Shown here: positions 401 through 52,698 of the stretch, piece after piece
Position numbering within the stretch: position 1 is the first letter of the stretch
Layout of the letters: each line of letters starts with the position of its first letter
DNA from: an uncultured virus (IMG/VR IMGVR_UViG_3300035698_010745)
Lineage: Duplodnaviria; Heunggongvirae; Uroviricota; Caudoviricetes
Strand: one strand, 5' to 3'
DNA: 64,000 bases
Virus record (IMG/VR): IMGVR_UViG_3300035698_010745
The notes under the pieces: generated by a model
Database searches by the model: none
What the model saw: only the letters and a program-made list of their open reading frames with translations
What the model was told of the DNA's origin: nothing
Translations under genes and position numbers: made by a program

Positions 401-413
401 ACGTCCTCCTACA

Positions 414-6494: not shown

Positions 6495-7016
6495 CTCTTC
6501 CTCTTTCCAAATTCCTACGGAACCTCTTGGACACGAATAAGCGGCCATCCGTTCCCAGTGTTCCTTCGTCGCCGCATCTGTCCATTCCTGAATCTCACTA
6601 GCCGAAGTGGTACCCGCAGACAATGTCGCCTGCATGAACTTCATGTCCGTTTCGAACACGGCTTCCATAGCGGCCCGCTTCGCCATCTGTTTGCGAATAG
6701 CTTCGCTCGTCAAAGATGAAGACTGTCCCTTTGGGAGCGGGCTCCATCCAGGTGCGATTGCCGTGTTCATCTGTCATCACAATTTTCGTTACGGACGGGC
6801 CTGACGCCATGTCTATCCCGACGGACATTCCCCATTGCAAATTCTGCCCAGACAAAGATGCTTCCTTTTGGCACGGCTCCTGCATACTCCATCTCCTCCA
6901 CGCACAACGGACATTCCGGGGGAAGATTCAATCCCCATGTCGTCCGCGCCATAAGCGTCCTATGCGGGCACGTCCAAATCATGTATGGCTCTGCGTCTAC
7001 ACTTGGCATTCTCGAA

Positions 7017-7436
7017 TTATCCAGCCGTGCATTTCTTCGCCTTTCTAACGTGACCCTCCATGTACTTTTTGTACAAGGTCTCCACAAACTGAGGAAGCAC
7101 CCCCTCCTTGGCTGCCTCATTGACGGCGAGCGTCTTGCCACCCCGAAGCAATCGGTTCACCTCAAGGCTCTTGAGCAGTATCTGCCCTTCGCCTCGGACG
7201 GAGTGAACCAGTATCACCATGTCCACGGGAATCGCTCCCTTCACACAAGATAGCCAGCTCCCGATTTCAACCTCTGTGCCGGATTCGGCCATCTTCCCCT
7301 CATCATCATAGTCCACAAGTAGTGCTGCTCCGGTTGGCCCCCGTAAAACCACCCCGTTCGGGATGTCGGTTGCTTTGACTCCACGCGGCAAATCCACAAC
7401 GGATGCCTCCGACCGATATTGATACTTCTCTCCCAC
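7017..7436 (-). CDS. hypothetical protein
   Basis: 139-aa ORF with GAGGAG SD. Confidence 0.65.
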   Translation of the reverse strand: MGEKYQYRSEASVVDLPRGVKATDIPNGVVLRGPTGAALLVDYDDEGKMAESGTEVEIGSWLSCVKGAIPVDMVILVHSVRGEGQILLKSLEVNRLLRGGKTLAVNEAAKEGVLPQFVETLYKKYMEGHVRKAKKCTAG

Positions 7437-8119
7437 TCATTGCTCCTCGCTACAGATATTCTGGGTTTTCCTCATTATACACTCACAACGGCCTCTGTCG
7501 CCGGACAAATCGCAACAGACCCTTCGGGGCAAAGAGCGGGACCCCACTCCCAGCCACATTCGGGACACCAGCGATGACCACTAACGATAACACCGCCACT
7601 ATCCCTCATATCATCCGACCGTGGCTCCCCGCGATACCAGCAGTGGCTACACGCCGGGATGTTCTCAGGACCGAACGCTACATACTTCCTCATCGAAGAC
7701 ATACGCTTGTTTACAGGGCACAATAACATCTTTGGAATACATCCTCCTCCCCTTCATGTCCACAGCGGATAAGAAGTTCTGATTCCCACAATCACAGCGG
7801 TCCGTCATCCATGTGCCCTTGAAATGAGCACCGCACTTGCGGCAATGCCAAGTAACCTTCATGTGGGCTCCTCCTCGTTGCAAATAACAACCGCCGAAGA
7901 ATCATAAGGAATCCACATCTGCCTAAGAGTTCTCCCCATCCCGCAATCCAGACAATGCCCTGATAGGACGAACCACGCTCTATACAAATGCTCTGGCAAT
8001 GGGGACACGCCCGGACATTCCCCGCCCGAAAGGACTGCCCCTTCTCCCGATGTATACAGAATTCCTTGCACTCGAAACAGGGCCGTAACTGCCGCAAGCG
8101 GACACCATTACCCTTCAGG

Positions 8120-8491
8120 CTAAACACAGCTTATTTCCTCCTCCCAGATGATAACGGCACCCCCGCAAGTCAATCTCGTTGCAAGTTTCTGACGGCCCTT
8201 ACCCGTCCGCATCATTTCCCGAATGGGCTTCGGAATTGACGAGAAGCCCTCCCGCTTAACATCTGCGAGACTCACGCACCAACCTGCCCCGCACCCTTCA
8301 CAACAAAAACCAATCGTCCGGGCCAACGGGTTATCCGCAGACAAGATTTGCTTGTGGTAGCAATGATGGTAGCCGACGACCGTCAATAACTCCATCATGC
8401 GCACGGGTACACGCTCCTCATCCCTGACGAATACAGTATGCCCGTCATAGCCTGGAGGCCCTAGGGCACCTTGATGTCCGTTATAGCTCAC
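8120..8491 (-). CDS. motif-bearing Zn protein with T.KGR.KLA segment
   Basis: CEGC; MRTGKGRQKLAT then GGAVIIWEEE. Confidence 0.6.
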   Translation of the reverse strand: MSYNGHQGALGPPGYDGHTVFVRDEERVPVRMMELLTVVGYHHCYHKQILSADNPLARTIGFCCEGCGAGWCVSLADVKREGFSSIPKPIREMMRTGKGRQKLATRLTCGGAVIIWEEEISCV

Positions 8492-9186
8492 GGTATAGCC
8501 CCCAGGCCACTTCTCTGCATGAGGTCTTTAACGGGTGCTTCCCACTTCTTCTCCAACAACTTTCGATTCCGCTCCATCAGGGATTTATCGATTGAACCCT
8601 CCCTCTCGCAGAACGGTTTGCCCACGTGCTCCACCATTGCCCTGTGCAATGCCTGACCCGACCGAAAGCCCGCATCAACAAACTTCAGTCCGAAGTCAAT
8701 GTCCTCAAAGCCATACGCACCATCGAACCGTTCATCATACCCACCCAACGCATACCAAACCATCTTCGGCATGGCTGTATTGGCACTGGACCAGTACGCC
8801 CCTGGGATGCCAAAGATTTCCGACGATAACTGGACAAACACCCCATCCACCATCCGGCCCAGGATAAAGGGTCCTCGGGACGCCTGGACATCGTCAAGAG
8901 CCTTCAAGTGAGCTTCAACCCAACGTTTGCCCGTAAGCCTCATGTCGTCGTCCAAGAAGATAAGGGTATCTCCCGTGGCCAACTCCACTGCCCGGTTTAC
9001 CATTTGGACCCTATGATATCCTTCATCCTGTCTCCAAAGGTATCGGTCCCCACAGACCACAGGCTCTTGACTCCCATCATCTGCCACCACAATCTCCACA
9101 GGCACAGTCTGTCCCCGAAGCTGTGCTATCAAATCGTGCAGCATCTCTTTACGATTGTAAGTAGAGATAATCACAGACACTTTCAC
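8488..9186 (-). CDS. glycosyltransferase family 2
   Basis: VSVIISTYNR, VVADDGS, FLDDD, GGYDERF..YGFEDIDF. Confidence 0.92.
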   Translation of the reverse strand: MKVSVIISTYNRKEMLHDLIAQLRGQTVPVEIVVADDGSQEPVVCGDRYLWRQDEGYHRVQMVNRAVELATGDTLIFLDDDMRLTGKRWVEAHLKALDDVQASRGPFILGRMVDGVFVQLSSEIFGIPGAYWSSANTAMPKMVWYALGGYDERFDGAYGFEDIDFGLKFVDAGFRSGQALHRAMVEHVGKPFCEREGSIDKSLMERNRKLLEKKWEAPVKDLMQRSGLGAIP

Positions 9187-10154
9187 GTTGCCACCTCAAA
9201 TGGTACCCGTACCCGGCACGGAAGGCCATCCTGCACAGAGACAAAGCCCTCCGGGGTCTCTACCTGTTCATCCCAAGTGTAAACTCCCAAGAACGGCCAC
9301 ATTAGCCATCTATCACCGTGAGAGGCACATTCAGGACATGGGTCAAGGTCCGCGTCACCGACATAACCACAGATGTAACACCGCCCCAGCGTTGAAAGGT
9401 CTTCTTGTTCCACACAGGCACAACCCATAGGAACTATTGCCGACCGACCGCCACACTTGCAAATATACTCTAGTGCAAGAAGTCGCTTGCCGCATTTCCT
9501 ACAACGGACACGGCCCTTCTTCGCAGCCTCGGCAACAACTTTCCGTGCCCTCCATTGTTCCTCACTCATCAGCATTGGGAAACCTTCCTTCCCACAACTT
9601 GCTCATCCATCACGATAACTATACCCTCCGAGACATCTGCCGTGTTGTCCCTCCAAAGGTGTGACGCCTCCGGGTAACATCCACATGCCGCCCACTTGCG
9701 TTGTTCCTCCACCCACGGGCAATCACACATATACGCTGGACGCGAGCAGTGTCGACAGCGGCGTGTATTGAAGCGTCGGAATCGGGTCCGAAGCCAAGTG
9801 CTCAAGTTCGACCACCACGCTGCCACACGTCCACTTTGCAGTTTCCTCGCAAGTGTTCGGGTCTTTTCCACGATTGCACGAACGCTCACTCCCGATGGGG
9901 TCATACTCTGTACACTTCCTGTTTGGACATTCCCTCATTCAACGCCACACTCCTCAAGGATGCGGTCCATCTCTTCTTCGGAGGGCAGCTCCTCCCCTCG
10001 CTTTTTAGCCGCTATGTCGTCCAGGACGTCATGTCCGCCGGGGTAGGGAAGTGGTTCATCTGGATTGCCGTCGACAATAAAGACAGGACGACCGCCCCAC
10101 CTTCCGGCGAGTCCGGCCTTCTGATACTCCACCCTGGTCTCGCGGCGAGTCTCC

Positions 10155-10592
10155 TTACGGATGTTTGCCTGCATGTGAGCCCAGTAATCCGAGCTGACCT
10201 TGAGAGGAGTCTCCAGTCCGGCCCTGTCCGCAGCTTGTTCCAACTGGCGACGGATGCGGATGGCTACGTAGTTCTTTCTGCTCACCAGTCTCCCCATTGT
10301 AGAGCTTTGGAGTGGCTCCGGGAAACACCTGGTCCAGCTCGCCAGGCAAGTGCCACAACAACTCTCGCTCCTTCGTGGTGGTCACCCAGCCCTCTAAAAT
10401 CTTTCGACCAGCGTGGATATCGTCGTGACATGACGGACAAATCCATGCTCGGTTCCACCACCGGTTCCATTGCACGCCAATGTCTCTGCCGTGAATATGG
10501 TGCTCTACGAGCATTCGCACGGTATGACATATTGGGCATTCCCGGCTGCCCGACCTGGCGGCTTGGCGCTCCCCCTTCAAAGTCCTTCGCAT
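10155..10592 (-). CDS. HNH endonuclease-like protein
   Basis: CPIC..EHHIHG..N...ICPSCHDDIH. Confidence 0.75.
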   Translation of the reverse strand: MRRTLKGERQAARSGSRECPICHTVRMLVEHHIHGRDIGVQWNRWWNRAWICPSCHDDIHAGRKILEGWVTTTKERELLWHLPGELDQVFPGATPKLYNGETGEQKELRSHPHPSPVGTSCGQGRTGDSSQGQLGLLGSHAGKHP

Positions 10593-11434
10593 GAAGGGAG
10601 CATCTCAAAATTGTACTCCTCACGTCAATCTTTCTTCTGTGTCTTCTGTGACTATTATACACGGCCATGTCACCGTGCCGTTCAAGTGTTTTCCGTATCC
10701 ACCAATACAGGGGCATGACGCGAAGTACCCGAACTTAGCGGGTTCCTTCGTGCCCGGTTTCCGATAAACGGATTTCTCCTTCACGATTTCCTGCCCGCAC
10801 TCCGGGCACGTGCCTCGGACTATGGCCCATCCCCACGGCATTCCTCACTCCTAACGATAACAAGGCCCTCCAATTTGAAACTAACCTCTGCGCTTCGCGA
10901 ATTGCTCACCACCATTGTTACCATGCACTCCTTCGGAAATGGATTCGACTCCCGGTCTATAAAACGACCACACTCCTTGCCATCCCGGTAAACAAGGTAG
11001 AGGTTACTGTCCATAGACTGCCGAACAGCAACCAAGCCCCGTTCATAAAATACGTCCTCCAATGCCTCATCCCAGACAACGACGGCCCCCAGAGGGACTT
11101 CAGAACTCATCATGTCCTGATGGCAACACACCTTACCCTGGGACAACATACCTGTAATAAGCCCCATATCGGTTCCGCCGCAAACCTCGCAACACAGCGA
11201 GACCCTGCCAGTCACCGTCTCTGTGTCCACCATTATCGGCATCAAGGACACACACACTCCTCCCAAGTGAACACCGTCCCGTCCGGGTTCCAGTTCGTTG
11301 CCCAGGCGTGGGGCAACCTTTCGGCGTCCCTGCCACATGTCGGACAGACAATCCCGTCAATTAATTGCTCAGTACTGGCCCCCACTAGCGGCCATCTAAA
11401 TCTCACAACGGACAGGAAAGAGCCACAGCAACAG

Positions 11435-12058
11435 CTACTCTCCCTCTTCCTGTAAACGATTCTCTGCCCCCGCACTAGAAGACACCTCGTTTTTCCCGGC
11501 AATCATTCCGACATTATGATACGCCACACAGCCGATGAGACCGTTATGGGTTTTTCGAATCACCCGAACTTCTTCTCCATCCTGTTCTGTCTCTTCGGTA
11601 CGACGAGGCTGTTCGTCTGCGGGAAGAACCCGACAGAATACCCGATATACCCGGATAGCCCAGTCCATCCCCTCCATCATCGGAGCGTCATGCTTCCGCT
11701 CTTCAACCAAGAGTTGGACTTTCGCCATGTCCATGAGATGACCCCGGATACCGTCCAGGCCGCCACCAAATGATTGAATGAACCGGCTGGCGTCGGTTAG
11801 TGGCAACGTTGGGTTGATAGAGACTTCCCCAAATGGCAAGTCGAATCGTTCGGGCATCGGCCCCGTAAACTCCAACTTGCCACCCTCCTTATTCTTCGCC
11901 CAGGCTATCGGCCCCGGAAGAGGCTCGGAAGAGACAATCGTCCCTTTATCAATAATTTTCAGGCAATCGCCCTCAATGATGACTTCGACGTCTTTCTTTC
12001 CGCCGTCGTCCGACAATATAAGCTCCCGATACATTCCAGCCGTTCTTACACTAATCAT
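11435..12058 (-). CDS. hypothetical protein
   Basis: Likely start MISVRT after AGGAGG SD. Confidence 0.6.
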   Translation of the reverse strand: MISVRTAGMYRELILSDDGGKKDVEVIIEGDCLKIIDKGTIVSSEPLPGPIAWAKNKEGGKLEFTGPMPERFDLPFGEVSINPTLPLTDASRFIQSFGGGLDGIRGHLMDMAKVQLLVEERKHDAPMMEGMDWAIRVYRVFCRVLPADEQPRRTEETEQDGEEVRVIRKTHNGLIGCVAYHNVGMIAGKNEVSSSAGAENRLQEEGE

Positions 12059-12296
12059 CGTCCTTCCTCCTTTTTTCTCCACACAATAACGTAACAGAGA
12101 TGGTATCCGGGTCAAACGCTTGGCCCAAGTTCTCTTCGTCCTTCACCTTTACAACTCCCTTCGGAATCATCGCATCAGCAATAGCATCGAAAATCGCTTG
12201 GTCCTCAGCCTTCTGTATCGCAGCCTTGGCCCGGATGGCTTTCTTGTCGATGATATCGAATCGCCGCTGCTTAATCTCAATTAGCCCACTCTTCAT
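12051..12296 (-). CDS. motif-bearing small protein, possible capsid-protein fragment
   Basis: IKQRRFDII...AIQKAEDQAIFDAI followed by IPKGVVKVKDEE. Confidence 0.6.
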   Translation of the reverse strand: MKSGLIEIKQRRFDIIDKKAIRAKAAIQKAEDQAIFDAIADAMIPKGVVKVKDEENLGQAFDPDTISVTLLCGEKRRKDDD

Positions 12297-12379
12297 GGTC
12301 TATATACACCGCCCCGTTCGCTATAACCGAAACAATCGAAGCAAAGACATGCCTGTCGGTCTCTTCGATAATGGCTTCC

Positions 12380-12412
12380 CTGGCTGTAGGCTGGCTGTAG
12401 GCTGGCTGTAGG
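12380..12412. repeat. 11-bp tandem repeat x3 (CTGGCTGTAGG)
   Basis: Three perfect copies inside ORF 12277-12741. Confidence 0.95.
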
Positions 12413-13306
12413 CAATCGAGGACCTGTTCTTCATTATACACCACTGCGACATGTGGCGCGGCCAGTTCTGTTGCCCTCTCAAATATTACAGCCACGGACC
12501 CTCCCGGACATCTGTACGGTAGTTGGTGGTCATCATGCCCAAACATCCTCCTGTCACAGCAAAACACGTTCGGGAACATCCGGCCCGCATCTCTTCCATC
12601 CTCCCAATAGTAATGCCCCGTCCGAGTATCATACGCCACTGTCCGTTTGTTTTCCTTGCATACTTCACACCGATAAAGGTAGACCCAGACTTGCATCGGG
12701 TTATCCATCTGGCCGCTCCTCCATTGGGTACACCGCCCCATTCACACAAGCCTGCTGCGCCTTTACCATCCAACTGGTACACCGTTGCCGGGCCTTAGCG
12801 AAGTCCCGTTCGAGGCCCAAGTGCGGACACTCCACCAACCGTCCCTCCCACAGCCACTCGTCACGGTCACGCCACGGTATCGGCCCGCGCTCCTGATTTC
12901 TTCGTCCCCCGTGACGACGGCAGATGTTCGTTGCCATACAATCCTTACAGATTGCCTTCAATAAAACTCTTCGTCCCACGCAAACACCACTCCTTCCGGT
13001 CTTAGCCCCTGTCCACGGGCCAGCCTGAATGCATTATCCAACATGCACCTGCCAATGATGGTTGGAGGAAAATACGCCACTTCATCAATCGGGGTGATGG
13101 TCCCTTTCGGGCCATACCAAACCCTTCTCCCCTTCCATTCAATCTTGCAATTCGGACAGTACCAATGCGGCGTGTCCCCGTCGTACTCCACAGTCAGGGC
13201 GTTTTCCGGTGGCGGTAACAGGCAGGCACTACAAATCTGCTTGCCCTTCAACGCCTCGTTGGTGGCATGAAGCATTTTGAGGAACGCAGTATTGCTCTGA
13301 GCCATC

Positions 13307-13615
13307 TTATATCCTCAAGTTGAAGCCCAGGTCCGCCATGAGTTCTTCCTCCGTCATTTGGCCTACCCACTCCTCATCCTCCACTGTCACACAACCGTCC
13401 GACAGCTTGATAGTCGGGCAACTGGCAATCTCGAACGTTGGCACGACAATTCGTTGCCCCTTGAGAGTCTTGGCCTTCAACCACAGGAACCGGCGTCTCC
13501 ACGGTGACGAATACACTACCGCCCGGAACTGCCACCGCAACTTGATGGCCCGGACAATGCGGGCAACTGCCCGCAGGGTCACTCTTCCTGAGCGTTGCGC
13601 CGTTAGAACGAACAT
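13307..13615 (-). CDS. motif-bearing small protein, possible capsid-protein fragment
   Basis: GQRIVVPTFEIASCPTIKLSD then GCVTVEDEE; start uncertain. Confidence 0.5.
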   Translation of the reverse strand: MFVLTAQRSGRVTLRAVARIVRAIKLRWQFRAVVYSSPWRRRFLWLKAKTLKGQRIVVPTFEIASCPTIKLSDGCVTVEDEEWVGQMTEEELMADLGFNLRI

Positions 13616-15337
13616 AGAGCATCTCCCGTCCGCACATCTGGCATCGGAACTTCATCAATCGTTCTTTCATTCCAAATCACCACTATCCCTGGAATCTGTT
13701 CCCACTCCCAACACGCATAGGTGCAACAATTCAGGCAGCACTTAACATTCTGCTTCAACGGGCCGCTGGGGCACAGTACTCTCATTCCAAATCACTACCT
13801 CTCCGCTCGACATCATCCATTCCAAACACAAGTATCCCTTCTTGGGACCGTACAGCATCCCTTGACATTCATCCCGACTTAGGCAGTTGGAACATGTCCT
13901 ACCCGTGTGTTTAGATTGCTGGATGTATAACCTACCCACTCATCCTCCCTTTCATCCCAAATCACCACCCCTCCGGCAGGCAACTCCCAGAATAAACAAA
14001 TCTGTGTGTAATGCCGGTCTTGCACCGGCTTGACACAACTCTCCTGGATACCACAGTTGTAACAACCCTGGAAATCGTGTTCATTTGTCAATAACTTGCT
14101 CATCCCACGTCACGGCCTGTCCCTCCAACACTTTCGCTGTCTCCCATTTGGTCCCGAAGCCATGCGTCACCACCGGGCACTCGTCAGAATGAGAAGTCAG
14201 CATATGCTCTTCTGCTGCGTTATGCCCAACGAACGCACACGACGCCCCGCATTCACCGCACCGACAAATCTCCGTCAACTTGTGCTGTCTCTTCTTCAAC
14301 GTAAGCCGTCCCCTTGGGTACAACCATCCCGGTCAGAAACTCGTATCCCAATCTGGGCGGCAATTTATCCCGGCCCCATGCCCGAATCTCAGACAGGTAG
14401 TCCACCTCTTCCTTCCAGACCCAAGCCGTGCCCGGAGGCTGGTTCGCTCTCTCGCGAGTTAACCGGGCATCGCACGAATAGCACAGTCCATTGAACCTGG
14501 TTTGCCAAACCTGCTCGCACAGTTCACATTCACGTCTCACAGCGTTCCTTGGACAATTCCAATTCATTCCAGATGACCGCCACCTTCTCTGCCTGAACTG
14601 CTTTGGTCATTCCATCACAGGACTCCTTGCAACAGGTGGTCCAAGTGGACGAGGGGGCCGCGTTAAACCATACATCGTGACACTTGAAACATGTCATGCG
14701 AGAAGGGCTCATGCCCGCTCCTCTTCCACAATCCAAACCGCTCCAGCCAGAATCCAGTCCTCCGGGCGCTCATACGCAACCCACCCAATATACTTGCCTA
14801 TATATTCTTCCTCTTCCTCTTTTATCCGCACGCATCCCTTCGGCGGGACCGTAACATCCCTGGGGCGTATCGGAAACTTCCCGACATAGCACGGAGGCCC
14901 CAGACTGAACTTCAGAACAAACTCCTCGTCCTCGACCACGACCACGCCGGGCGGGTTATCATGCGTGAAGTCCTGCATGAACCCACCGTGATAGCAATTA
15001 TCACACTGCATGATGCCCGCAAGGGAATCAGCCCATGCCCACTGGTTCACAACCCCGCACTTGGGACAAACAACGAACTTGGGTTTTTTAGGGGTTGGGG
15101 GCGTCTGCCGCTGGCCCAACGCGAAATCCCGCAAAAGTTGCGTCACCCTCTTCATAGACTGCCTCAATGTGTCCCCTCCCATCATCCCGAACTCCGAACA
15201 ACCCGTTCAAGATTCCCAAAAGTCCTACCCGGCAATTGCTGCCGTCTGCATCTGCCTGCACCTGGATAGTGGGATGCTGGGCCAACTCATCGTTGCAGGG
15301 CACCCTGGCTTCCATAAGGGCCTGCAACGCCTTCGGG

Positions 15338-15913
15338 TCATTGCAGAACGCATCGTTTAGCAACTCCACCGCATCCCCCGTCGTAATCCTTGCCCGTCCG
15401 AATGTATCTGTGTCCATTACTACTCCCCTCCCACACCACATGGAATTTATTCTTTGCCTGGAAACTCTCCCAGTCCACCGGGTCAACCCTGTCCCGTTTC
15501 GTTCTATCCATCAATAAATCAACAGCCTGATTTGTCGGGAAAGCATTCTTTCTGTCAGTAAGAACGTCATAGGGCAAGCGGGGCCGGTACTGGGATAATG
15601 AAACTGGACGAATATTTATCCAGTTCCAACAAATGCGAAGCTCTTCCGAATCGGTCTGGTTAAATAATGCCAATGGCACGATATGTCCCACCTGCCAGTT
15701 ATCGGTAAAGTTCTCCCACGACATACCATCCCGAAATTGGTGCTCAATAAATGCCCGCATAAAATCGCGGTCACACCCGAACGCCAGCATGTGCTTGTAG
15801 CTTGGAGCCGTCCCCAAAATGAAACGCCGTAGAGCAATCCCCATGCGCTTCTTTTCTCGGTTCTGTTCCTTCGCCTGTTTATACATAGATACCTCCACCC
15901 GAGAATATGCCAT
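15338..15913 (-). CDS. HNH / endonuclease VII-like protein of large viruses (possibly degenerate)
   Basis: GC...FIEHQFRDGMSWENF..WQVGHIVPL..F......CWNWINIRP. Confidence 0.7.
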   Translation of the reverse strand: MAYSRVEVSMYKQAKEQNREKKRMGIALRRFILGTAPSYKHMLAFGCDRDFMRAFIEHQFRDGMSWENFTDNWQVGHIVPLALFNQTDSEELRICWNWINIRPVSLSQYRPRLPYDVLTDRKNAFPTNQAVDLLMDRTKRDRVDPVDWESFQAKNKFHVVWEGSSNGHRYIRTGKDYDGGCGGVAKRCVLQ

Positions 15914-24909: not shown

Positions 24910-24945
24910 CGAAGGCCCCAACTCAATCACCGAAGGCCCCAACTC
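24910..24945. repeat. 21-bp-period direct repeat
   Basis: CGAAGGCCCCAACTC at 24910 and 24931 (ELGPS twice). Confidence 0.85.
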
Positions 24946-43436: not shown

Positions 43437-43838
43437 TTATAGTGTATCAGTTTCATTACCCCTCCTTGCATGTAAGGAAGGGCATGTTGGGCTGTGAATC
43501 CGAAACCTATTTATGGTCGTGGCTTGTCCAGTGTCGAGTTCCTGCTCACTCCATGTCCTCGGTATGTCGTCCGGGGGCAAGTTCTGCACGTTCAATTGTA
43601 CCCTGTTCTTCCTGGTGCTGCAATCTTTGCAGATGGGAGTACCCTTGCCAATCCAGAACCAGCCACTACCCTTGCCAATCCAGAACCAGCCACATTTCGG
43701 ACACCAATACAACAAATCCGGTGTGTCTACTATGGGGCGGACCATTGCCGCAGCCAGGTGCTTACGGCCTTCCGATGTGGACAGTATCCGGGCTATGATG
43801 TCGTTCTTCTGACATACCGAACCAGATTTGCTGCTCAT
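43437..43838 (-). CDS. Zn/motif protein with possible capsid N-arm fragment
   Basis: IIARILSTSEGRKHLAAAMVRPI, CPKC/CKDC, VQNLPPDDIPRTWSEQ. Confidence 0.6.
   Translation of the reverse strand: MSSKSGSVCQKNDIIARILSTSEGRKHLAAAMVRPIVDTPDLLYWCPKCGWFWIGKGSGWFWIGKGTPICKDCSTRKNRVQLNVQNLPPDDIPRTWSEQELDTGQATTINRFRIHSPTCPSLHARRGNETDTL
43640..43693. repeat. 27-bp perfect in-frame tandem duplication
   Basis: TACCCTTGCCAATCCAGAACCAGCCAC x2 (GWFWIGKG twice). Confidence 0.95.
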
Positions 43839-44691
43839 GCCAGACGATTACCTGCCTTCCCGGTGGAGGTTTGAACGATTCCAGGCGGCCAGCACAGCGC
43901 GGGCAATAAGCCAACCCCTCAGATATCGTGTTCCAGCCACAATTACAGCCCTGGAAACGGTCCTGACTCAACAGTCTCATCCCACACCTCAACGATGCCC
44001 AATGGTAGGGGCTCGGCCACGCGCTCGGCCATTGGACTTGAGCCAGAGCCATGCGACCCTTGCCCGTGGATAGCCGGGCAATTCTTTCGGCCTTGGCTTG
44101 GTTACAGGCTTTCTTGTCCGGGTTCAACACGGGCCGGTATCGCGAGCGGGCTTGCGCCGGATACCGTTCTCCATCTCGTCGATGTAGCCCTGAATCCGAT
44201 TCAAGTCATTGCCCCGCGTGTCATCGTCACCCTTGGCTTCGTCATATTCAAAGGTTTCGGTTGAACCTCCACCCGAAAAACGAACCAACAATCCCCCATG
44301 CCCGGACATCTGTGCGTCCTGCTTACGGCACCAGCACACATTGGTGACATTGATAGTGGTTCTCGCTCTGTCGTACAGCCTCATAATTACTCTCCCAATC
44401 CCCACTGGACTCCACCCGCATCGTATACCGTTCCCTCGCTGACAAAGCGGAGAAGGGCCGATTTGCGGACATATCTCTTTACTCTCCAGGCTTTCCATCC
44501 CTGGCACCGGCCCCGCATCCCTACCCACAAGACATCAGCGCCACTATGGGACCGTGTGACACTGCACCAGTTCTCGGCGACCTTGTAAGGGCCATGCTTG
44601 TTGTATTCATCGAATAACTGGCGAGCCGTCATCGTGTTCTTTCGCCCGGCATGCCTCGGTTTTCGGCCCTTGAAGGCAATCATTCGTGTTT

Positions 44692-44859
44692 TCATTCTGC
44701 ATCCTCGATAGGCAGAACCGTCTCAACGGGGGAGACATTGTTGTCGTTCGCCGTTTTATGACGGGCCTTGTTGATAACCGGGATAAGTAGTCCGGCCAGG
44801 AGGGCGATGATGGCTATAACTATCAGCAGCTCGATGAGCGTGAATCCTTGTTTCTTCAT
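44692..44859 (-). CDS. minimal prepilin-like peptide (55 aa)
   Basis: MKKQG|FTLIELLIVIAIIALLAGLLIPVINKAR; ORF open to 44991. Confidence 0.8.
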   Translation of the reverse strand: MKKQGFTLIELLIVIAIIALLAGLLIPVINKARHKTANDNNVSPVETVLPIEDAE

Positions 44860-45139
44860 GGTACTTTTCCTTTTGGGTTTTTGTGATGGCCAGCGAATGC
44901 CCTTGTATCTCTTTTCGAAAGCCTTGGTGTTTTCACCTTGGCGACGTTGGCTGCCCTTTCCGTTCTGTTCCAGTAGTTCCGACATTGACAATTCTCTCCT
45001 GGCCTACGATAACGACCCCTTTAGGAATCCACTCCTTATCAGAATCGCTTGACAATTTCAAACATCTAACGCATCGGTCGGGCACACCCGCCAAGCCCAT
45101 TGCACAGCTTTCACAGTCTCTTTTCATTCCACTTTTTAC

Positions 45140-45353
45140 TTAGCCGCTTGTGGGGTATGGGTGTCTTTCAAGCTATGACACACTTGCATGACGTGGGTGT
45201 CTTAGTTTCAATGGCTCGCTTACTTCTGGTGGGTGTCTTGGAGCACATGGCTCGCTTTTCCTGCATGGGCGTCTTCATATTCATGGCTCGCTTGCAGTCT
45301 ATGTGTCTTCTGAATTATGGCTCGCTTTAGTTCTTTGGGTGTCTTCTGCCCTG
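45140..45353 (-). ncRNA. TIGR-type tandem interspaced guide RNA array (about 5.5 units of 36 nt)
   Basis: Alternating AAGCGAGCCA and AAGACACCCA repeats separated by unique 8-nt spacers, 36-nt period, immediately 3' of a Nop-domain gene. Confidence 0.85.
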
Positions 45354-45360
45354 AAGTTCT

Positions 45361-46452
45361 TTACGCGGCGATGTCCTTCCCGATGGACTCCTCTACGGCC
45401 CCCTGAGAGGGCTTTTCGTACTTCCATCCCCGCGCTTCCGGGTCAATAGTACGATGGCTCTTGCCAAGCTGTGCCGTAGCGTAGCTCGGGTTCGTGTCGC
45501 ATCCCGCCAGCGTCCGGCCTACAAACCACCAGTCAGCTAGGAAGTGCTTGATGACCGCCCGAATGGCTGCACCATGCCGATGACTCGGCTTCGTGTCCTT
45601 CCACGGCAGCTCCACCAGCTTGCCTTGGGTCGTGCGAGTCTTGACCACCTTGTCAGACACCTCAAGCCGAGCCTTCACGCGGTCGTAGATTTCGCGGTAA
45701 TCCCCACGGCTTTTGATTTGTGCGTCCGCAAAGGTGTACAGCACCGTGCGCAGTGTCTTGTTGCCACCACCTGCTTCTCCCTTGGTGTACCGCTCGTGAC
45801 TCGGCTTGTCCAGCCCCACGTACTGCCACGTACTGGAGGCATGCGGACACTTCTCCTGACCGGCGCGGGGATGAGCCTTGCCCTCCCCATCCTCGTCGGG
45901 GAAGATGCCTGCCAAGTCAAGGTAGACGAGGCAATAGGCCACCGTTATCGGGCCGCAACCCTTGACACCCAGTGCAGCCTTGGCCAGCGGGTCATCAAGA
46001 GCAATTACCGCATCCGACACCTGCTTGGTCAGCTTGGTCAGCGTGCGGTTCGTAAAGCCCAACTGCTGTTCGAGATGCAACTTCATCTCGGGGTTGAAGT
46101 GGTCCGTCCGGCGGTCGTAGGCACGCAACCTGTTGGCGATGCCGTTACGCAGCTTGACAACCTGATTCCGGTCGTCCACCAGCGTTTTGAGGGCCTCCAT
46201 CTCCGGTGCCCGTTCCCGGAAATTGCCGTGCTTTTTCATGTGCCCAACCGGGTCCAGCACGGAAACGTTGCCTGTGTCGTCATAGGTTCCGCCATCAGCC
46301 TTCGGCGTGTCCCGATGCGTGTCTACCAGTTTCGTTTGTTTGATGAGTTGCGCCATCGACATTCCGGTCACCTGTTCCAGCGCCTCAGCCAGTTCGGGCT
46401 CCTGGGTTGCCAATCTCCGCAACGCATCTTTCTTTAGCTTCTCCTTGCCCAT
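45361..46452 (-). CDS. TIGR-associated Nop-domain protein, TasA-like (IS110-related, no recognisable nuclease)
   Basis: Coiled coil (R.Q..KLR..IANRL), VKGCGPITVA, ASSTWQYVGL, GGNKTLRTVLY, YREIYD..KAR, HRHGAAIR..IKHFL.D.W; SD GAAGGAGG; adjacent array. Confidence 0.82.
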   Translation of the reverse strand: MGKEKLKKDALRRLATQEPELAEALEQVTGMSMAQLIKQTKLVDTHRDTPKADGGTYDDTGNVSVLDPVGHMKKHGNFRERAPEMEALKTLVDDRNQVVKLRNGIANRLRAYDRRTDHFNPEMKLHLEQQLGFTNRTLTKLTKQVSDAVIALDDPLAKAALGVKGCGPITVAYCLVYLDLAGIFPDEDGEGKAHPRAGQEKCPHASSTWQYVGLDKPSHERYTKGEAGGGNKTLRTVLYTFADAQIKSRGDYREIYDRVKARLEVSDKVVKTRTTQGKLVELPWKDTKPSHRHGAAIRAVIKHFLADWWFVGRTLAGCDTNPSYATAQLGKSHRTIDPEARGWKYEKPSQGAVEESIGKDIAA

Positions 46453-46464
46453 AATCCGCCTCCT

Positions 46465-46673
46465 TCATATTGTCACTGCATGCGCAATGTCCCTCTTCTC
46501 ATGCCAAGTCAATGCCGCCCCATCTCGTGCCGCATTCGCTCCGTTAATGATGGCCTCGGTCCAGCTCAGCTCACCTCACCATCCAACCACCTGTCTCCAA
46601 TATTCTGCATGGCCAACGCTTCCAGCCTTAGCCGGGCTTGCCGGATTTCCTCAATCTCATTTCGCAAACTCAC
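46465..46673 (-). pseudogene. frameshifted motif-bearing small gene
   Basis: Removing a 5-nt duplication near 46562-46579 restores a 67-aa ORF ending ARDGAALTWHEK... Confidence 0.5.
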
Positions 46674-46984
46674 GAGGCAACTTCATCCCACACGGTCACG
46701 GCACCGGCGAACTCTACCCTGGCCCCGAATAGAAAAATACCATTTCCACCAATATCTGCCGCCTCCTTAAAGTTGCGGCCCCAGTTGCGTCCGGTCAAGA
46801 TAGTGCACTCGACAAGCATATCATACCGTTCTATTTGGCTCATGGCCTTATTGACTTGCATAACCGTCTGGCAATGTCGTGCATCACAAATGCCCTTGAC
46901 TTCGTGGTCGCACTCCCCATCCACAAAGTCAAACGGGTCAAGGTGTCGTTCACCACACTTTACGCATCTAAACTCATGGGCCAT

Positions 46985-48052
46985 CTACTCCACTCGCATC
47001 GGCATCAACACATGGGTCCACCCCTCATGGAAGCTCACACTCGGACTCAAATTGTCAGCCTGATAGAACTTCCTGAATCCCGAACCCAATGCTTCCAGCA
47101 TGTAGGCGCTGTTCATGCCTGTCGCAGCAGCCAATGTCCCGCTCCCGTCCATGTCAATCTTGACCCTGCGGTTGTCTTTGTGGTTGGTGGCATTCAAAAT
47201 CAGCTTGGTCTTGGTTTTCAAGCATTCTATCCGAATGCAATCGTCCCGGCTTCCCGATAACATCGAGGCTATCAGTCTGAACGCCGGAATCGCATCGTCG
47301 GACAACTCGAAATAGATCGACGATGTAGTGGGGATAACTTGACGGTAGTTGGGATAGGTCCCTTCCACCTGTTTCATTACGTACTGCCAGTTGGCCGTCT
47401 TGACGCGCACGTCGAGTTCGGCTTTCTCGACACCCAAGATGGGGCCAGGCCCGGTCCACGAAAGCCAGGACGTTTGCGGGATGATGGTTTTCTCGTCAAA
47501 CAACTTTGGGCCATCCTCCTTGGTAACAAGACGACGGCCATCCGTGGCTGCAACAGCACCTTCGGGTGTAAACAACACGCCGTTAAGAACAAAGCGGGTC
47601 TCGTCGGTACTGGAATACGGCAACGCAAACAGGTAGTCGGCCCTGAAAGTAGGAGCCTTCTTCAACTTCCACTTCTCGAAAGCGTCAAAATCCCAGTTCA
47701 CCTCATCAAAGATGGGCATGTCGAACTCGCACGACGCCCGCCACAGGTCTTCCTGGTACTTAACCTCCAGCGTTTTCGAGTCCTTCCTCTTGATGGTCAA
47801 GGAGTCACCGCGAATGGAACTGAGCATCACTCGCAAGTCCGCCAATTGCATCACGACAGGGTCGCTACCAGTGCTGACCGCTTCGGGGCAATGAAAGGTT
47901 GCAGACTCGTTGTAATTCGTCCCTGTAATCCGAATGCCATCCTTGCCGGGACGGATGCAGATGGTGCCGAAAAGAGGCATACGAGCCTTGATTATCTTTC
48001 CGAAGCCCACGACGGCTTCCTTCAACGATGCAACCGGAATAGTGATTTCCAT
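46985..48052 (-). CDS. dnaN: DNA polymerase III beta sliding clamp
   Basis: STDETRFVLNGV, AATDGRRL, EGTYPNYRQVIP, terminal VLMPMR; ~355 aa. Confidence 0.92.
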   Translation of the reverse strand: MEITIPVASLKEAVVGFGKIIKARMPLFGTICIRPGKDGIRITGTNYNESATFHCPEAVSTGSDPVVMQLADLRVMLSSIRGDSLTIKRKDSKTLEVKYQEDLWRASCEFDMPIFDEVNWDFDAFEKWKLKKAPTFRADYLFALPYSSTDETRFVLNGVLFTPEGAVAATDGRRLVTKEDGPKLFDEKTIIPQTSWLSWTGPGPILGVEKAELDVRVKTANWQYVMKQVEGTYPNYRQVIPTTSSIYFELSDDAIPAFRLIASMLSGSRDDCIRIECLKTKTKLILNATNHKDNRRVKIDMDGSGTLAAATGMNSAYMLEALGSGFRKFYQADNLSPSVSFHEGWTHVLMPMRVE

Positions 48053-48935
48053 GACTGTTTCTCCTCTGCTCTTTTTTCTTCCCACACTACGGCTATTGTG
48101 CCGTTCTCAATCCATTGTGGCCTTCGCGAATCCATGAGCGGGGTTCCGCAACACCGGCTGCTGGCGAACACCTCGTGGTCTCGTAAAATCGTTATTGGCC
48201 TCTTGCATACACTACAACTATACACTTCGTAGTGCTCAGGGGGACGAATTGATTTGCCTTTCTTCCTCAATTGTTGCTTCCTCCCATGTGAAAACTGCTC
48301 CACGCGGGATGCTTTCTATTCTCGACTCTGGAGCCACAGGCATTCTCCAGTCACAAGTGCATTCCGTTAATGCTCGCCGGGAATGGTCACCGTAAAGAAA
48401 TACACCATTACACCCTTGACATATCCACACTCCCCATGAGGAACCTATGCCTTGCGTTCTCCCCATACAATCGCCCCGCCTTCCTTCTTTTTTATTACGA
48501 TTTCAGCTTGTCGGGCGCTGGGAATTCAGATTCCGTCACGCCGCCCTCCAGTCTGCGCCTGGAAGCGGGCCGCCATTATTGATTCAGTCCAGATTATAGC
48601 AACGCCCTTTGGGATGAATCCCGCACACTTTACTACATCCCCTCGCGTATTATGACACATGCACATGAAATCTCCACTATTGCCGCATCTCTTGCATATC
48701 TCTCCGGCCTCCGCCCCTACTCCCACTTGATATCTCGGCACATGGGCCTCACAATCCCCATGGTCAAACCCATCGGCCCCATCGCAACCGCAACAGTTCC
48801 GGCAGAACGGGTCAAGCGTATCACTCATTCGCTCTTCCCCTGCTACACCTACAACGCCCTGGGGCACAGTCATCGGGACCATTCCCATCTTGCAGGATTT
48901 GCACTCGCACGAGCCATGCCAAATTTCCTCTACAA

Positions 48936-49310
48936 TTACACGTTCGTATCCGCAGCTTCGGCATTCCCAGGTTCTTGTTCGTTGCATATTTTCCTGAACT
49001 CCACTGGTATTCCCATCTCTTTTGCCTTCGCTATCCCGAACTTCATTCCCCTGCTTATTCCAAAGTCAGTATACACCACAGAACCCTGTGCCGCCTCTCT
49101 CCATGCCAGACCAGCGGCAATCCCCCATTGTCTTTCCTCTGGGTTTTTATCGTCGAGTATTCCGGGCTGTGTATACAGAAGATGACTGGCTATTGGGGCC
49201 TCACCTCTTTTTAGTGAGTCTTTGACGCATTGCCGTGCATACTCGATGTTCTTTTGGGTCTCTTCGTCATCTTTGCCTGCAAACGGGCTTTCAAGAATTA
49301 CCAGTCTCAT
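48936..49310 (-). CDS. NDT-like / DUF4406-like phage protein
   Basis: VILESPFAG, NIEYAR, GEAPIASHLLYTQ, ER..GI.AG, VYTD.GIS.GM. Confidence 0.75.
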   Translation of the reverse strand: MRLVILESPFAGKDDEETQKNIEYARQCVKDSLKRGEAPIASHLLYTQPGILDDKNPEERQWGIAAGLAWREAAQGSVVYTDFGISRGMKFGIAKAKEMGIPVEFRKICNEQEPGNAEAADTNV

Positions 49311-49469
49311 TTCTCTCCTCTTTCGCTACACCTACAACGTCCTGGGGCACGTCCTCGGGCACCATGCTCTCGTAACTGCACGTACAGCCGTGGCTAACCA
49401 ATACGCCGTCATCATCCGTGGCTACTATTTCCCGGCCACAACGGCTACAACGCCAGATTCTTGTTCGCA

Positions 49470-50051
49470 TTATGCCCAAATCAGCTCCACCTTTGTCAAA
49501 AAATGGTCTTGCATGGTAAATGAGCCTTCAACGGTGCGGCCTTCAAGGATATGGGGCAACCAGACCCGGTCGTCCATCCACATGTCTCCCCATGGCAAGT
49601 CATTCACGTCAAACCATTGGGGCAACGCCTCGTCCGTTTCTTGAGGGTATCCGATGCATTCATCTGCCCGGAAAACATGAACACGCATGGAGAAATCGTT
49701 CTCATCGGGCATGTAGAAATCAAGTGTGCCCACGCTCCGAATGCCATCGGGCTGGGCAATGACTTCCTCTTTGAACTCACGTAAGGCGGCCAAGGTGGGC
49801 GTCTCTCCCTCTTCCACATGACCGCCTGGAGCATTCCACATTCCTGCCCCGAGTCCACGCTTCTTGTTGATAAGTAACACCTTACTGTCACAGATAACAA
49901 AGAGCAGGGTCGCCGTTTCTTTCAACTGTTCCTCATTTTTCACTATTACAACTCCCTTGGGTGTGAATTCCGGGCATGTCCCTTCCACAAATAGGCAATC
50001 TTCGCCATAGGAAATACAATCTTTACATGCGCACCTCTCCCAATCCATCAT
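49470..50051 (-). CDS. Nudix hydrolase, MTH1/8-oxo-dGTPase-like, with N-terminal Zn/motif unit
   Basis: KKRGLGAGMWNAPGGHVEEGETPTLAALREFKEE; MWMDDRVWLP. Confidence 0.9.
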   Translation of the reverse strand: MMDWERCACKDCISYGEDCLFVEGTCPEFTPKGVVIVKNEEQLKETATLLFVICDSKVLLINKKRGLGAGMWNAPGGHVEEGETPTLAALREFKEEVIAQPDGIRSVGTLDFYMPDENDFSMRVHVFRADECIGYPQETDEALPQWFDVNDLPWGDMWMDDRVWLPHILEGRTVEGSFTMQDHFLTKVELIWA

Positions 50052-51093: not shown

Positions 51094-51318
51094 GCCCGAT
51101 TATACGCTCTGCTCGTCATAGACGAACACGGTTCTTTTGGGGCTACACTTTTTCGTGGGTTTTACACCACGAACAGACAAATACATCGAGACTCTCTTCG
51201 TTATGGCGTATCACCCCAGAGCAAACCGGCCCTCCACAATCAGGGCATCCCCGACCTGTAGGGTGTCCCAACCAAAGTTCGGGCTTTTCTTCTGTTTCTG
51301 CTTCCATCTCTCTTGTCT

Positions 51319-51627
51319 TCATTTATCCAAAACGTTATCTGGCTCAGTCAGTTTGGACGATTCGGCAGGTGTTCCAGGCTCCTCGTCCGGGGTATGACCA
51401 TTGCGGTCGCGACTGAAATAGTCCTTGTAGACCCCTTGAATGACCAACAACAACGCGGAGAACATAGCCACAAGTGTCTCGGGCTTGAATTCCGTGCGTT
51501 GTTTGACCATGACATAGGCCAGGGCCATACAGAATGTAAGAAATGCAGCTCCGGCCAATACCGTTAGAATCCAACGGCCACTTGTCGCCTGTGCTACAAA
51601 CCGGTCACCTTTCGATAGTCTCATCAT
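51319..51627 (-). CDS. two-TM membrane protein (holin-like)
   Basis: Two hydrophobic segments and a charged C-tail. Confidence 0.5.
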   Translation of the reverse strand: MMRLSKGDRFVAQATSGRWILTVLAGAAFLTFCMALAYVMVKQRTEFKPETLVAMFSALLLVIQGVYKDYFSRDRNGHTPDEEPGTPAESSKLTEPDNVLDK

Positions 51628-52036
51628 CCGGCACCTCCGAGCTGACTCCAGTTACCTCTGATGAGGGCTTTGACTCTTCCTGCAATTCGGCTTTTGCTCC
51701 GGTCTTGGCCTCTGTCCAATTGGGCTCTCCGTGCATCCAGCTTATTGCCCTGTCGAGCAGAATCAGGTTGTTCTGCTGTATCGCGCCGGAACGAGACACC
51801 ACCTGAACAAAGTTGTTATAGCCATTACCCATGCTCTGCATATCTGCACCGATACTGGCTGTGGCGACAAGACACGTGGCCGTATCCGCTTCCACCTTTG
51901 CCAATCTTTCGACGACATCCAAGGCGGACACCTGGATGTTCGTGCCCTTGCCACGAACAAGAGCCGTCACACAACAAGCAACCACCATCGCACACAACCA
52001 CAACACTCTCTCTGCTGCCCTCTCTGCTGCCTTCAC
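51605..52036 (-). CDS. membrane-anchored hypothetical protein
   Basis: N-terminal hydrophobic helix; 12-bp duplication AAER-AAER. Confidence 0.5.
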   Translation of the reverse strand: MKAAERAAERVLWLCAMVVACCVTALVRGKGTNIQVSALDVVERLAKVEADTATCLVATASIGADMQSMGNGYNNFVQVVSRSGAIQQNNLILLDRAISWMHGEPNWTEAKTGAKAELQEESKPSSEVTGVSSEVPDDETIER

Positions 52037-52392
52037 CCTGCCTCCTCTGCCGGATTGTCCGACGTTTCTGTTTCTTCTGGCTTCTCAACGTCTTCTGTTG
52101 CCGCCTCTTTTGACTCGGCAATGGCTTCCTTCATCGTGGATAAGATGTCGGGAGATGCCTTGATGATGCTGGCTTTGAATGGCCCGGACACGCCTAGGGC
52201 CGAAAAGACTTCTTCGAGGGTGGATGGTACGTCAATCACGATGACGCCGTTGGAATCGACAAGCTTCCTCATCCCGCACATCGAATCCACTTCAAGAAAG
52301 CTGCCAAGCGTCTTCCCGGCAACGGAAACGACAAAACGCCTCTCTACCTGGACGTCAACCACTGGAGCCTTGAATGTCTTCAGGTTATCCAT
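52033..52392 (-). CDS. hypothetical protein
   Basis: Likely start MDNLK after GGAGG SD. Confidence 0.6.
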   Translation of the reverse strand: MDNLKTFKAPVVDVQVERRFVVSVAGKTLGSFLEVDSMCGMRKLVDSNGVIVIDVPSTLEEVFSALGVSGPFKASIIKASPDILSTMKEAIAESKEAATEDVEKPEETETSDNPAEEAG

Positions 52393-52698
52393 TTCATCCT
52401 CCCTTATATTGCCGCGACGCAACGTCACGAGTGCAAACCGACACAAGATACGACTTATCGGAAATCGTTTCAAGCCTTATCTCTGTCCACGGGCTAATTA
52501 CAGCAATTCCATTTGCCGGGGGCTTGAATCGGGACTCATCTCCCGACCAGCCACACCCCATACACTGCAAAATGTCGATTTCAAATGACTGAACTTCGTC
52601 CTCATCATCCGGCCCCGGAAACCCTTCGCCCTCCCGCAAGTCCTCACAAAAACAGCGTGGGCAGCGCATCCTTGTGTGGTGCAGGGGCTTATGTATCA

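Follow-up and report, generated by a model that had tools for sequence, protein, structure and literature searches.

On the minus strand of the 64,000-nucleotide stretch of uncultured caudovirus DNA analyzed here (hereafter the window), about 46 kb carries a field of small genes whose products share a 12-residue tail, and this field is probably a lineage-specific expansion of one undescribed mini-protein family in a large uncultured phage, with the tail as its conserved working element. The field, in a phage found in salt-lake metagenomes, spans 6500..50050 (minus strand) and comprises about 159 predicted ORFs (median length 78 aa) and 75 anchored tails, the consensus of which is [V/C]-P-x-G-x-[V/A]-h-[V/T/P]-[W]-x-E-[E/Q], with a G-to-E spacing of 7 in 65 of them. 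The unit is about 45–80 aa long; its usual head is a two-knuckle ribbon (CxxC ... CxC or CxxC), after which come one strand, the P-x-G turn, a further, hydrophobic strand, and the invariant Glu, in the pattern h-x-h-x-[V/C]-P-x-G-x-[V/A]-h-[V/T]-[W]-x-E-[E/Q]. A unit may stand alone as a gene, be part of a protein of 2–3 units, or lie in frame ahead of another gene. Canonical single units of 53 aa are found at 38499..38660 (minus strand; CxxC..CxxC..WCPAGTVRTYQEETT) and 31416..31577 (minus strand; ..VPKGVVVTWKEEQL), and multi-unit proteins, all on the minus strand, at 14709..15185 (three tails: NPPGVVVVEDEE, PPKGCVRIKEEE, and ILAGAVWIVEEE), 20297..20956 (three units, with no start codon after the internal tails), and 32219..32617 (three units: ..IAVVWGEE.., ..VPQGVALTHHEK.., and ..IGVVWGEQKL).

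Across the whole window, a tail HMM at a threshold of at least 8 bits gave 77 matches on the minus strand versus 1 on the plus strand, and at most 1 match per strand in each of 5 simulations of the DNA; lowering the threshold to at least 6 bits raised the minus-strand count to 92. The strict regular expression P.G.[VIALFMC]x(1-5)[DE][DE] matched 64 times in the three minus frames and twice in the plus frames, and 3.2 ± 2.3 times on the minus strand of 20 second-order Markov simulations. Among 207 predicted proteins, 69 matches to the HMM were found, versus 0 in each of 5 residue shuffles and 0 in the reversed sequences, while the +1 and +2 off-frames gave 4 matches each, all within alternative long ORFs. 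The matches are confined to 4–52 kb, with none at 0–4 kb or 52–64 kb. ORF calls were heuristic, and 10 of the 77 tails sit in ORFs that the caller did not choose. An earlier sequence-only reading had proposed a library of 100 or more proteins with one shared terminal tag; the eight peptides that it quoted all lie in minus-strand ORFs and its tag is strongly enriched in frame, and the count comes down to about 75–92 tails.

The tail is conserved at the amino-acid level, since the third codon positions of its P, G, and V are nearly free: information at positions 1/2/3 is 1.72/1.72/0.02 bits for P, 2/2/0.17 for G, and 1.41/1.06/0.05 for V. The same peptide is encoded by different codons in a related metagenome contig, L001, of 35.4% GC (53% in the window). 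The tail also persists across the switch in GC skew, as the sequence-only reading had held. To the left of the switch lies a sub-array of recent duplicates (24548..27694, minus strand; W[GN]EY.T.CP.GCVM[PV]G.EEACG...), which has the most G-rich coding strand and GAGGAG as the Glu-Glu hexamer in 9 of its 12 tails; to the right is a compositionally distinct sub-array (28934..33654, minus strand) with a GC content of 0.486–0.489 and the opposite GC skew, its genes still on the minus strand, in which tails end in ..TTQEQKL and Glu is retained although 7 of 13 hexamers are GAACAA, a poor Shine-Dalgarno (SD) sequence. Promoter-like and terminator-like sites at the boundary (27–29.5 kb) do not exceed shuffled expectation. 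That the tail is a by-product of nucleotide constraints, whether an SD sequence or another RNA or DNA signal, and has no meaning as protein is a reading already contradicted and barely credible. It could draw on the biased third position of the Glu codons (1.06 bits, GAG preferred) and on the 43 of 75 hexamers that consist of G and A only (GAGGAG, GAGGAA, GAAGAG, GAAGAA) and are placed at SD distance, but P, G, and V lie 15–27 nt upstream of the SD with free third positions, the peptide survives the change from 53% to 35% GC, and the tail is missing from off-frame translations and the opposite strand.

The end of the tail is closely tied to the layout of the genes. Overlaps of 4 nt occur at 77 of the 206 gene junctions in the window, all with TGA, and at 34 of the 41 junctions (ATGA, GTGA, TTGA) in a near-unbroken chain of 42 small genes at 28934..39849 (minus strand). 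Because the Glu-Glu codons lie 5 nt before a next start that overlaps the stop (ATGA), they would double as the ribosome-binding site of the following gene, and this geometry suggests that translational coupling drives the production of units in long runs. At 31 of the 75 tails the ORF ends with an overlapping start, and at 47 (31 + 5 + 11) an ORF of 30 aa or more has its start codon 2–15 nt downstream; 24 others are internal and lack a following start, which makes the motif more than an initiation signal. As in known coupling through 4-nt stop/start overlaps (reviewed in PMC12548453), ATGA, GTGA, or TTGA overlaps here come with an SD inside the upstream gene; unlike in known coupling, the codons of this predicted SD also specify a Glu-Glu pair conserved within a protein motif, and the layout recurs through runs of tens of paralogous genes. 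The array thereby offers a clear case of dual coding, in which one set of six bases specifies both Glu-Glu and the next gene's predicted ribosome-binding site.

The same geometry could be read as a cis-acting translational element, in which the nascent P-x-G-x-V-x-x-W-x-E-E holds the terminating ribosome at ATGA and enforces re-initiation; we consider this very improbable. The exact spacing of 3 residues after Glu in 24 of 35 ORF-end tails, the start codons that closely follow 47 of the tails, and the same end geometry in the contig of 35% GC, whose GAAGAA makes a poor SD, are consistent with it, and the coupling review mentions "other cis-acting elements", with no occurrence of "nascent peptide" in its abstract and the passages covered (PMC12548453). 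A stop distance fixed in all copies, as in an arrest peptide, is nevertheless not what the array displays: the 24 internal tails have no start or stop nearby, 10–25 residues separate tail and stop at 13.3–14.7 kb, and the SD-to-start distance together with the overlap already explains the fixed spacing.

Within the 65 aa upstream of the 75 tails, at least two cysteine knuckles (CxxC or CxC, about 10–25 residues apart) were found in 49 cases, one in 11, and none in 15. The heads of the first group are predicted zinc ribbons, with zinc binding predicted from the knuckles. Thirty-two units align as one family (alignment A1) in which C, G, and E are invariant and C, C, C, and P nearly so, the four cysteines C8, C11, C27, and C30 all being invariant or nearly invariant. 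The sequence-only reading had called the bodies mutually unrelated, which does not hold for the two thirds that form this alignable family; its broader picture of variable heads on a constant tail keeps a constant tail, selected as protein and partly portable. Since pairwise BLAST with the tail masked linked only 26 of 69 bodies and left 43 singletons, homology may not extend to all heads, and zinc ribbons can be convergent. In Pfam the small ORFs match no family at E ≤ 0.01, and at E ≤ 1 the matches are weak and limited to generic ribbon models. In PHROGs, 6 units searched at 1e-3 retrieved 0 families, and at E ≤ 0.1, among 50 members, no family was common to more than 2. By these profile searches, the mini-protein family is absent from Pfam and PHROGs. 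The window contains no tRNA or Rfam family.

The tails on cysteine-free bodies (15 of 75) are more readily explained by a portable tag than by a single fold. A cysteine-free, helix-like body with tail IPKGVVKVKDEE (12051..12296, minus strand) has an external homolog, P0048, that keeps both body and tail, and the cysteine-poor second body of a two-unit protein (12958..13305, minus strand; ..LDNAFR..RPEGVVFAWDEE) is repeated, with its tail, in external homolog P0062. The tail further stands in frame ahead of unlike genes on the minus strand. Upstream of an LpxR-family gene (5565..6770), a stop-free in-frame unit ends in CPRGSVGIWKEEE, which directly precedes the Met of a signal-peptide-like N-terminus; at 22163..22825, 2 codons separate a zinc-ribbon unit with tail VPSGRVMVFKEE from the Met of a prepilin-type N-methylation protein; and a Nudix (MutT-like) gene (49470..50048) has an in-frame N-terminal mini-unit with tail TPKGVVIVKNEE. 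Because the closest Nudix homologs lack this extension, the apparent fusion may be a mere stop-less junction.

These cases speak for a pure adaptor library, in which the tail would be a portable, exposed docking peptide appended to unrelated heads, enzymes included, and would bring them all to one partner, for instance the capsid, a protease, or a host hub. We judge this unlikely: at least two body types besides zinc ribbons bear the tail, but two thirds of the heads belong to one family, no linker separates the tail from the last ribbon strand, and the tail's P-x-G turn is typical of a folded hairpin. AlphaFold models of the 53-aa units at 38499..38660 (model 1, pLDDT 82.7) and 31416..31577 (model 2, pLDDT 72.6) contain 2–4 strands, and in both the tail is coil with no sheet strand, at a pLDDT of about 70–78 that is similar to that of the body. 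The hairpin is thus a reading of the sequence pattern, and the coil would suit an exposed peptide, as would a PDB profile search in which no solved structure matched the tail part of the profile. That search returned a weak match to eL37 (E = 5e-4) covering positions 1–37 only, Foldseek matches to ribbons were weak (E ≥ 0.09), as were those from VIA (Z ≤ 3.3), and the ESM Atlas gave generic zinc-ribbon clusters only. A presumed resemblance to the C-terminal strand of the zinc-ribbon ribosomal protein bL33 was dropped, as no L33 appeared among the 60 PDB profile matches or 25 Pfam families listed.

The placement of tails directly before the Met of the LpxR-family and prepilin-type proteins, and their recurrence between the units of multi-unit proteins, could also point to a processing or turnover signal, in which the tail (..h-x-E-E), with its invariant Glu, would be a cleavage site or degron recognized by one protease, so that units are freed from multi-unit or run-on proteins or their removal is timed. 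Glu-specific prohead proteases occur in T4-type and giant phages. The window has an HExxH metallopeptidase-like ORF at 433-1344, its Pfam match (PF18894, E = 0.0015) falling below the cut-off. Such a peptidase would suit a cleavage signal, but with this sub-threshold match, and with most ORF-end tails already 3 residues from a stop, we hold a processing role to be improbable.

The family extends beyond the window. A search of 1.84 billion representative proteins with the unit profile found 91 proteins, 22 of them the window's own and 69 external, and most were 50–200 aa long with the same ribbon and tail. Particular window paralogs were matched by 34 external proteins at 31–74% identity, and individual paralogs have orthologs elsewhere. 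High variability made alignment A1 unsuitable for scanning loci, and a word-indexed protein search with it returned 4 proteins, all the window's own. Scanning with alignment A2 gave 1 locus in metagenome contigs, L001, with six consecutive family genes, and 0 confirmed loci in genome contigs. In viral contigs, patterns for a clamp-like protein and for P0011 had no match and the L001-type tail DNA pattern gave 0 loci, and tblastn of two family proteins against 50,697 GenBank phage records gave no match. A general tail-plus-ATGA pattern produced 69 single-match loci in viral contigs and was rejected as chance, since only 5 of the 69 had a tail-HMM match in 576 kb.

Neighboring units can be near-identical and share conserved junction DNA (CAAGAACAAAAACTATGAAAAA), which suggests that the array grows through tandem duplication of units or through unequal crossing-over at their junction; DNA tandem repeats in the window number only 5 and are short. 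Nearly all contigs from four runs matched the window at 99% identity or more, with no sign of hypervariation or DGR-like change. One contig of run X1 skips a 170-bp unit (30161..30330, minus strand), with 33 nt fitting both sides, which reflects either copy-number variation or assembly collapse of repeats. A covariation between C(-3) and C(+1) of the tail was dropped, as its p of 0.003 with recent duplicates became 0.31 without them.

Under the preferred reading, that of one expanded mini-protein family, the conserved hairpin and Glu would form the common working surface, which most probably contacts one shared partner or ligand, and the variable loops around the knuckles would give each paralog its own specificity; the tail would either pack onto its own body or dock in trans. 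The products are likely non-structural, host-directed binders that serve takeover or counter-defence. Docking of the tails on one common partner is plausible. A bolder reading, which we consider rather unlikely, would make the 12-residue tail a portable address tag that brings more than 75 different small heads (zinc ribbons, helical bodies, and perhaps enzymes, Nudix or GP88-like) to one hub in the phage or the host, and one ribosome run along the overlapping genes would supply the heads in fixed ratios. Were the tail shown to act as a docking tag, the family would amount to a natural binder library on a single scaffold. The 12-residue signature is sharply defined, which opens it to searches, mutagenesis, and use as bait, and the array is a concrete case in which to ask why large phages retain dozens of tiny paralogs, each conserved individually.

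Among known systems, the poxvirus ankyrin-PRANC/F-box proteins are a multigene family with variable heads and a constant, helical C-terminal docking module whose partner is the SCF complex. Like them, the window family has many paralogs that vary in their recognition parts and share one short conserved element at the C-terminus; unlike that helical module of eukaryotic viruses, with its SCF partner, the tail is a 12-residue element of beta type, by its sequence pattern. If the address-tag reading is true, the "variable head, constant docking tail" families known from large eukaryotic viruses would have a counterpart in this array of a prokaryotic virus. Closer at hand is Bacillus phage G, for which a zinc-ribbon family of about 35 copies, called unprecedented, was published in 2021 (Viruses 13:63, PMC7824862), its authors suggesting transcription factors or DNA-binding proteins; the earlier statement that no described phage system has this architecture was therefore too strong. 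Both genomes hold dozens of small zinc-ribbon paralogs, but the window has more copies (49 two-knuckle units among 75 tails in 46 kb, with 75–92 tails in all), a defined tail, and that tail on non-ribbon bodies as well. A unit profile (A3) run against the whole phage G record (NC_023719) gave 3 weak matches (E 0.001–0.085) at knuckle positions 5–36 only, the tail HMM had 0 matches in those 3 loci, and the two families are, by this profile comparison, analogous but distinct. The expansion described here is thus of a kind already known from giant phages, denser and larger than that of phage G and built from an apparently unrelated mini-protein family.

In the best-supported reading, the minus strand of the window carries a lineage-specific expansion of a single new mini-protein family, whose most conserved element would be a C-terminal strand-turn-strand with an invariant glutamate, and the end of this element would have been recruited to start translation of the following gene within chains of genes coupled at translation. 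The sequence-only reading had noticed a recurring tail, and this observation was confirmed, each of the peptides that it cited being located in some minus-strand ORF. A strict regular expression matched 64 times in the minus frames and twice in the plus frames; in 20 Markov simulations the count was 3.2 ± 2.3. A tail profile was built from 76 seeds and applied at two cut-offs: at 8 bits or more it gave 77 matches on the minus strand and 1 on the plus strand, five simulations giving at most 1 per strand, and at 6 bits or more it gave 92 minus-strand matches. All matches fell within 4-52 kb of the window. Among the 207 proteins predicted by a heuristic gene caller, 69 matches were counted, while neither shuffling the residues (five times) nor reversing the sequences produced any. 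Four matches in each of the +1 and +2 frames of these predictions were found in long alternative ORFs skipped by the caller, as were the 10 of 77 window matches called off-frame. The profile was also run, as a negative control, on 69 IMG/VR loci (576 kb) chosen for a tail-like DNA pattern, and matched once in each of only 5 of them.

The conservation of the tail acts on the protein and not on a nucleotide signal. Anchored on the glycine, 75 tails gave the consensus [V/C]-P-x-G-x-[V/A]-h-[V/T/P]-[W]-x-E-[E/Q], with a G-to-E spacing of 7 in 65 of them. The information at codon positions 1, 2, and 3 was 1.72, 1.72, and 0.02 bits for Pro, 2, 2, and 0.17 bits for Gly, and 1.41, 1.06, and 0.05 bits for Val. 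Third-position bias was confined to the Glu codon (1.06 bits, GAG preferred), as would be expected if the same bases also serve as a Shine-Dalgarno (SD) site. A metagenome contig of 1568 bp and 35.4% GC (L001) consists end to end (1-1568, plus strand) of six tail-bearing family genes in a row joined by ATGA overlaps, which end in ..VP.G.AFTVKEEKV and use AT-rich codons; the ending ..AFTVKEEKV is identical in three consecutive genes.

Overlaps of 4 nt were present at 77 of the 206 junctions between predicted minus-strand ORFs, with TGA as the stop codon in all 77, and in the 42 small genes that follow one another at 28.9-39.9 kb they made up 34 of 41 junctions. Thirty-one of the 75 tails end an ORF and carry an overlapping start, typically 5 nt past the hexamer formed by the two Glu codons, and 4 end an ORF without a start; exactly three residues follow the invariant Glu in 24 of these 35 ORF-end tails. 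The internal tails comprise 11 followed by an off-frame ORF start and 24 without any start, and in the remaining 5 the reading frame runs without a stop into the start of another gene (LpxR, a prepilin-type protein, a Nudix, and two others). The hexamer is GAGGAG in 23 of the 75 tails, GAGGAA in 9, GAAGAG in 7, GAAGAA in 4, and GAACAA in 9; in the block at 28.9-33.7 kb, 7 of 13 hexamers are GAACAA, a poor SD sequence in which the Glu is retained. From the junction geometry, the internal tails, and the GAACAA hexamers that keep their Glu, it follows that the Glu-Glu codons probably double as a ribosome-binding site at many junctions, yet that the motif is not reducible to this role. A nascent-peptide role of the tail in the coupling is a minor possibility, as is a protease or degron role. 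At 13300-14700 (minus strand), very short ORFs (26-74 aa) are clustered that repeat ..VVIWNE, VVIWDE, or VAVIWNE with little body, and their tails, which stand 10-25 residues ahead of the stop, depart from the canonical geometry.

The in-frame "fusions" allow more than one reading. The LpxR-family outer-membrane lipid A deacylase homolog (5565-6770, minus strand; PF09982, E = 3e-58), which has phage-like surroundings, has a signal-peptide-like N-terminus that begins right behind an in-frame tail, with no stop between the gene and the unit upstream. Both LpxR and the prepilin-type protein depend on an N-terminus of their own, which suggests that each is initiated internally. The closest Nudix homologs (64-69% identity) are without an N-terminal unit.

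The sequence-only reading had also held that the bodies are mutually unrelated heads and the tail a constant part by which they dock. This interpretation is supported in part: the constant, protein-level tail stands, and the unrelated heads give way to a ribbon architecture common to most of them. At least two Cys knuckles (the CxxC or CxC pairs of a zinc ribbon) precede 49 of the 75 tails within 65 residues, with 11 preceded by one and 15 by none, and an alignment of 32 single units reads M..CxxCG..CxC/CxxC..h-x-h-x-[V/C]-P-x-G-x-V..E-E, its Cys, Gly, and Glu being invariant. Pairwise BLAST with the tails masked linked 26 of 69 bodies and left 43 singletons, which falls short of proving homology for all of the heads. 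In AlphaFold models of two units (pLDDT 82.7 and 72.6), an N-terminal strand and the strand preceding the tail form a small sheet, the tail itself being coil in both (pLDDT about 70-78). Structure and sequence searches returned generic zinc ribbons only (Foldseek E ≥ 0.09, VIA Z ≤ 3.3); a PDB profile match to eL37 (E = 5e-4) was limited to positions 1-37, the tail part was never matched in the Foldseek, VIA, or PDB profile searches, and the family is not represented in Pfam or PHROGs. The alternative, in which unrelated heads carry a portable docking tag, gains some support from the 15 cysteine-free bodies and the coil in the models, but we consider it unlikely given the ribbon architecture common among the heads and the lack of a linker ahead of the tail. 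Under the preferred reading of one expanded family, analogy with other families of paralogs suggests that the conserved element likely forms a common working surface for a shared partner or ligand, with the variable loops giving specificity.

Recent duplicates are concentrated in two blocks, at 24.5-27.6 kb (..CP.GCVM[PV]G.EEACG..) and 29.4-30.9 kb (MKKD.TT.YCLRCGLRYF ... VP.G....TQEQKL), and in the latter conservation covers the N-terminus and the DNA of tail and junction, while the stretch around the second knuckle is highly variable and indel-rich. One contig from a sequencing run matching the window (X1) leaves out one complete unit (a skip of 170 bp in which 33 nt fit both sides), which fits unequal crossing-over but could be an assembly collapse. 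Almost all contigs from four runs matched the window at 99% identity or more, which argues against ongoing hypermutation. GC is about 53% across the 64-kb window and 0.486-0.489 at 28000-34000, where plus-strand GC skew is positive, the skew reaching its most negative values (-0.41 to -0.44) in the adjoining 24-28 kb; because the genes of 28000-34000 remain on the minus strand, the "skew switch" reported earlier is not a strand switch. The distinct composition of the 28-34 kb block suggests a mosaic origin of the sub-arrays. Between two sub-arrays, about 1.2 kb (27700-28950) is without tail-bearing ORFs, and promoter-like and terminator-like matches there did not exceed shuffled expectation.

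The minus strand carries almost all genes. The larger ORFs have matches in phage-type and accessory families, namely a DNA polymerase processivity factor (phrog_947), GP88, DUF7768 (48936-49310), DUF4031 (16711-16977), two NUDIX (the second at 53391-53990), a family-2 glycosyltransferase, an AdoMet-decarboxylase-like protein (PF02675, 40876-41253), a Macro domain (59583-60005), LpxR, and two proteins with prepilin-type N-terminal methylation motifs (PF07963, GFTL[IV]ELL; 22163-22825 and 44692-44859), those with coordinates being on the minus strand. Also on that strand, a 363-aa protein (45361-46452) shares 47.5% identity with a hypothetical protein from the halophile phage Salicola phage CGphi29 and matches a transposase-annotated PHROG (phrog_4285, E = 7.5e-23), and a 303-aa ORF with HExxH (433-1344) has a weak, below-cut-off match to the putative phage metallopeptidase PF18894 (E = 0.0015). 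From 60900 to 64000, coding is on the plus strand (ORFs 60946-62034, 62099-62290, 62487-62981, and 63134-63844), and the long "ORFs" on the opposite strand of this stretch are shadow frames. DNA near-identical to the window was present in 10 salt lake metagenome runs from 10 studies, 2 of which contained at least half of the sampled window words. A host from the PVC group is hinted at by the two prepilin-type proteins and by named Nudix relatives from Verrucomicrobiota and Kiritimatiellia (48-50% identity).

Among 1.84 billion representatives, the unit profile matched 91 proteins at E ≤ 1e-3, 22 from the window itself and 69 external. Most of the external proteins are 50-200 aa long, contain one to three units of ribbon plus tail, and often stop three residues past the Glu. 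Thirty-four of them match specific window paralogs at 31-74% identity, including homologs of the cysteine-free bodies, which retain the tail, which indicates that individual paralogs are maintained in related phages. A few long matches are unrelated repeat proteins: P0007 (1295 aa) and P0014 (1059 aa), which contain ..APIGVVLAWEER.. 11-12 times and matched in the tail part only, have the appearance of tandem repeats translated from another organism, and their resemblance to the family is probably due to chance. No family members were found among 50,697 GenBank phage records (tblastn, two family proteins), in IMG/VR searches, or in species-representative genomes.

A full-text literature search found no description of the family. 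New are the family itself, its density (within 46 kb, 75-92 tails and 49 units with two knuckles), the 12-residue signature of beta type, its occurrence on non-ribbon bodies, and the dual use of the Glu-Glu codons; the finding of one common tail-dependent partner would raise interest greatly. Bacillus phage G has a zinc-ribbon expansion of about 35 copies, termed "unprecedented" by Iyer et al. (PMC7824862). Across the entire phage G record, the unit profile gave three weak matches, to the knuckles only and with the tail absent. The phage G expansion is analogous to the array in the window but represents a distinct family.
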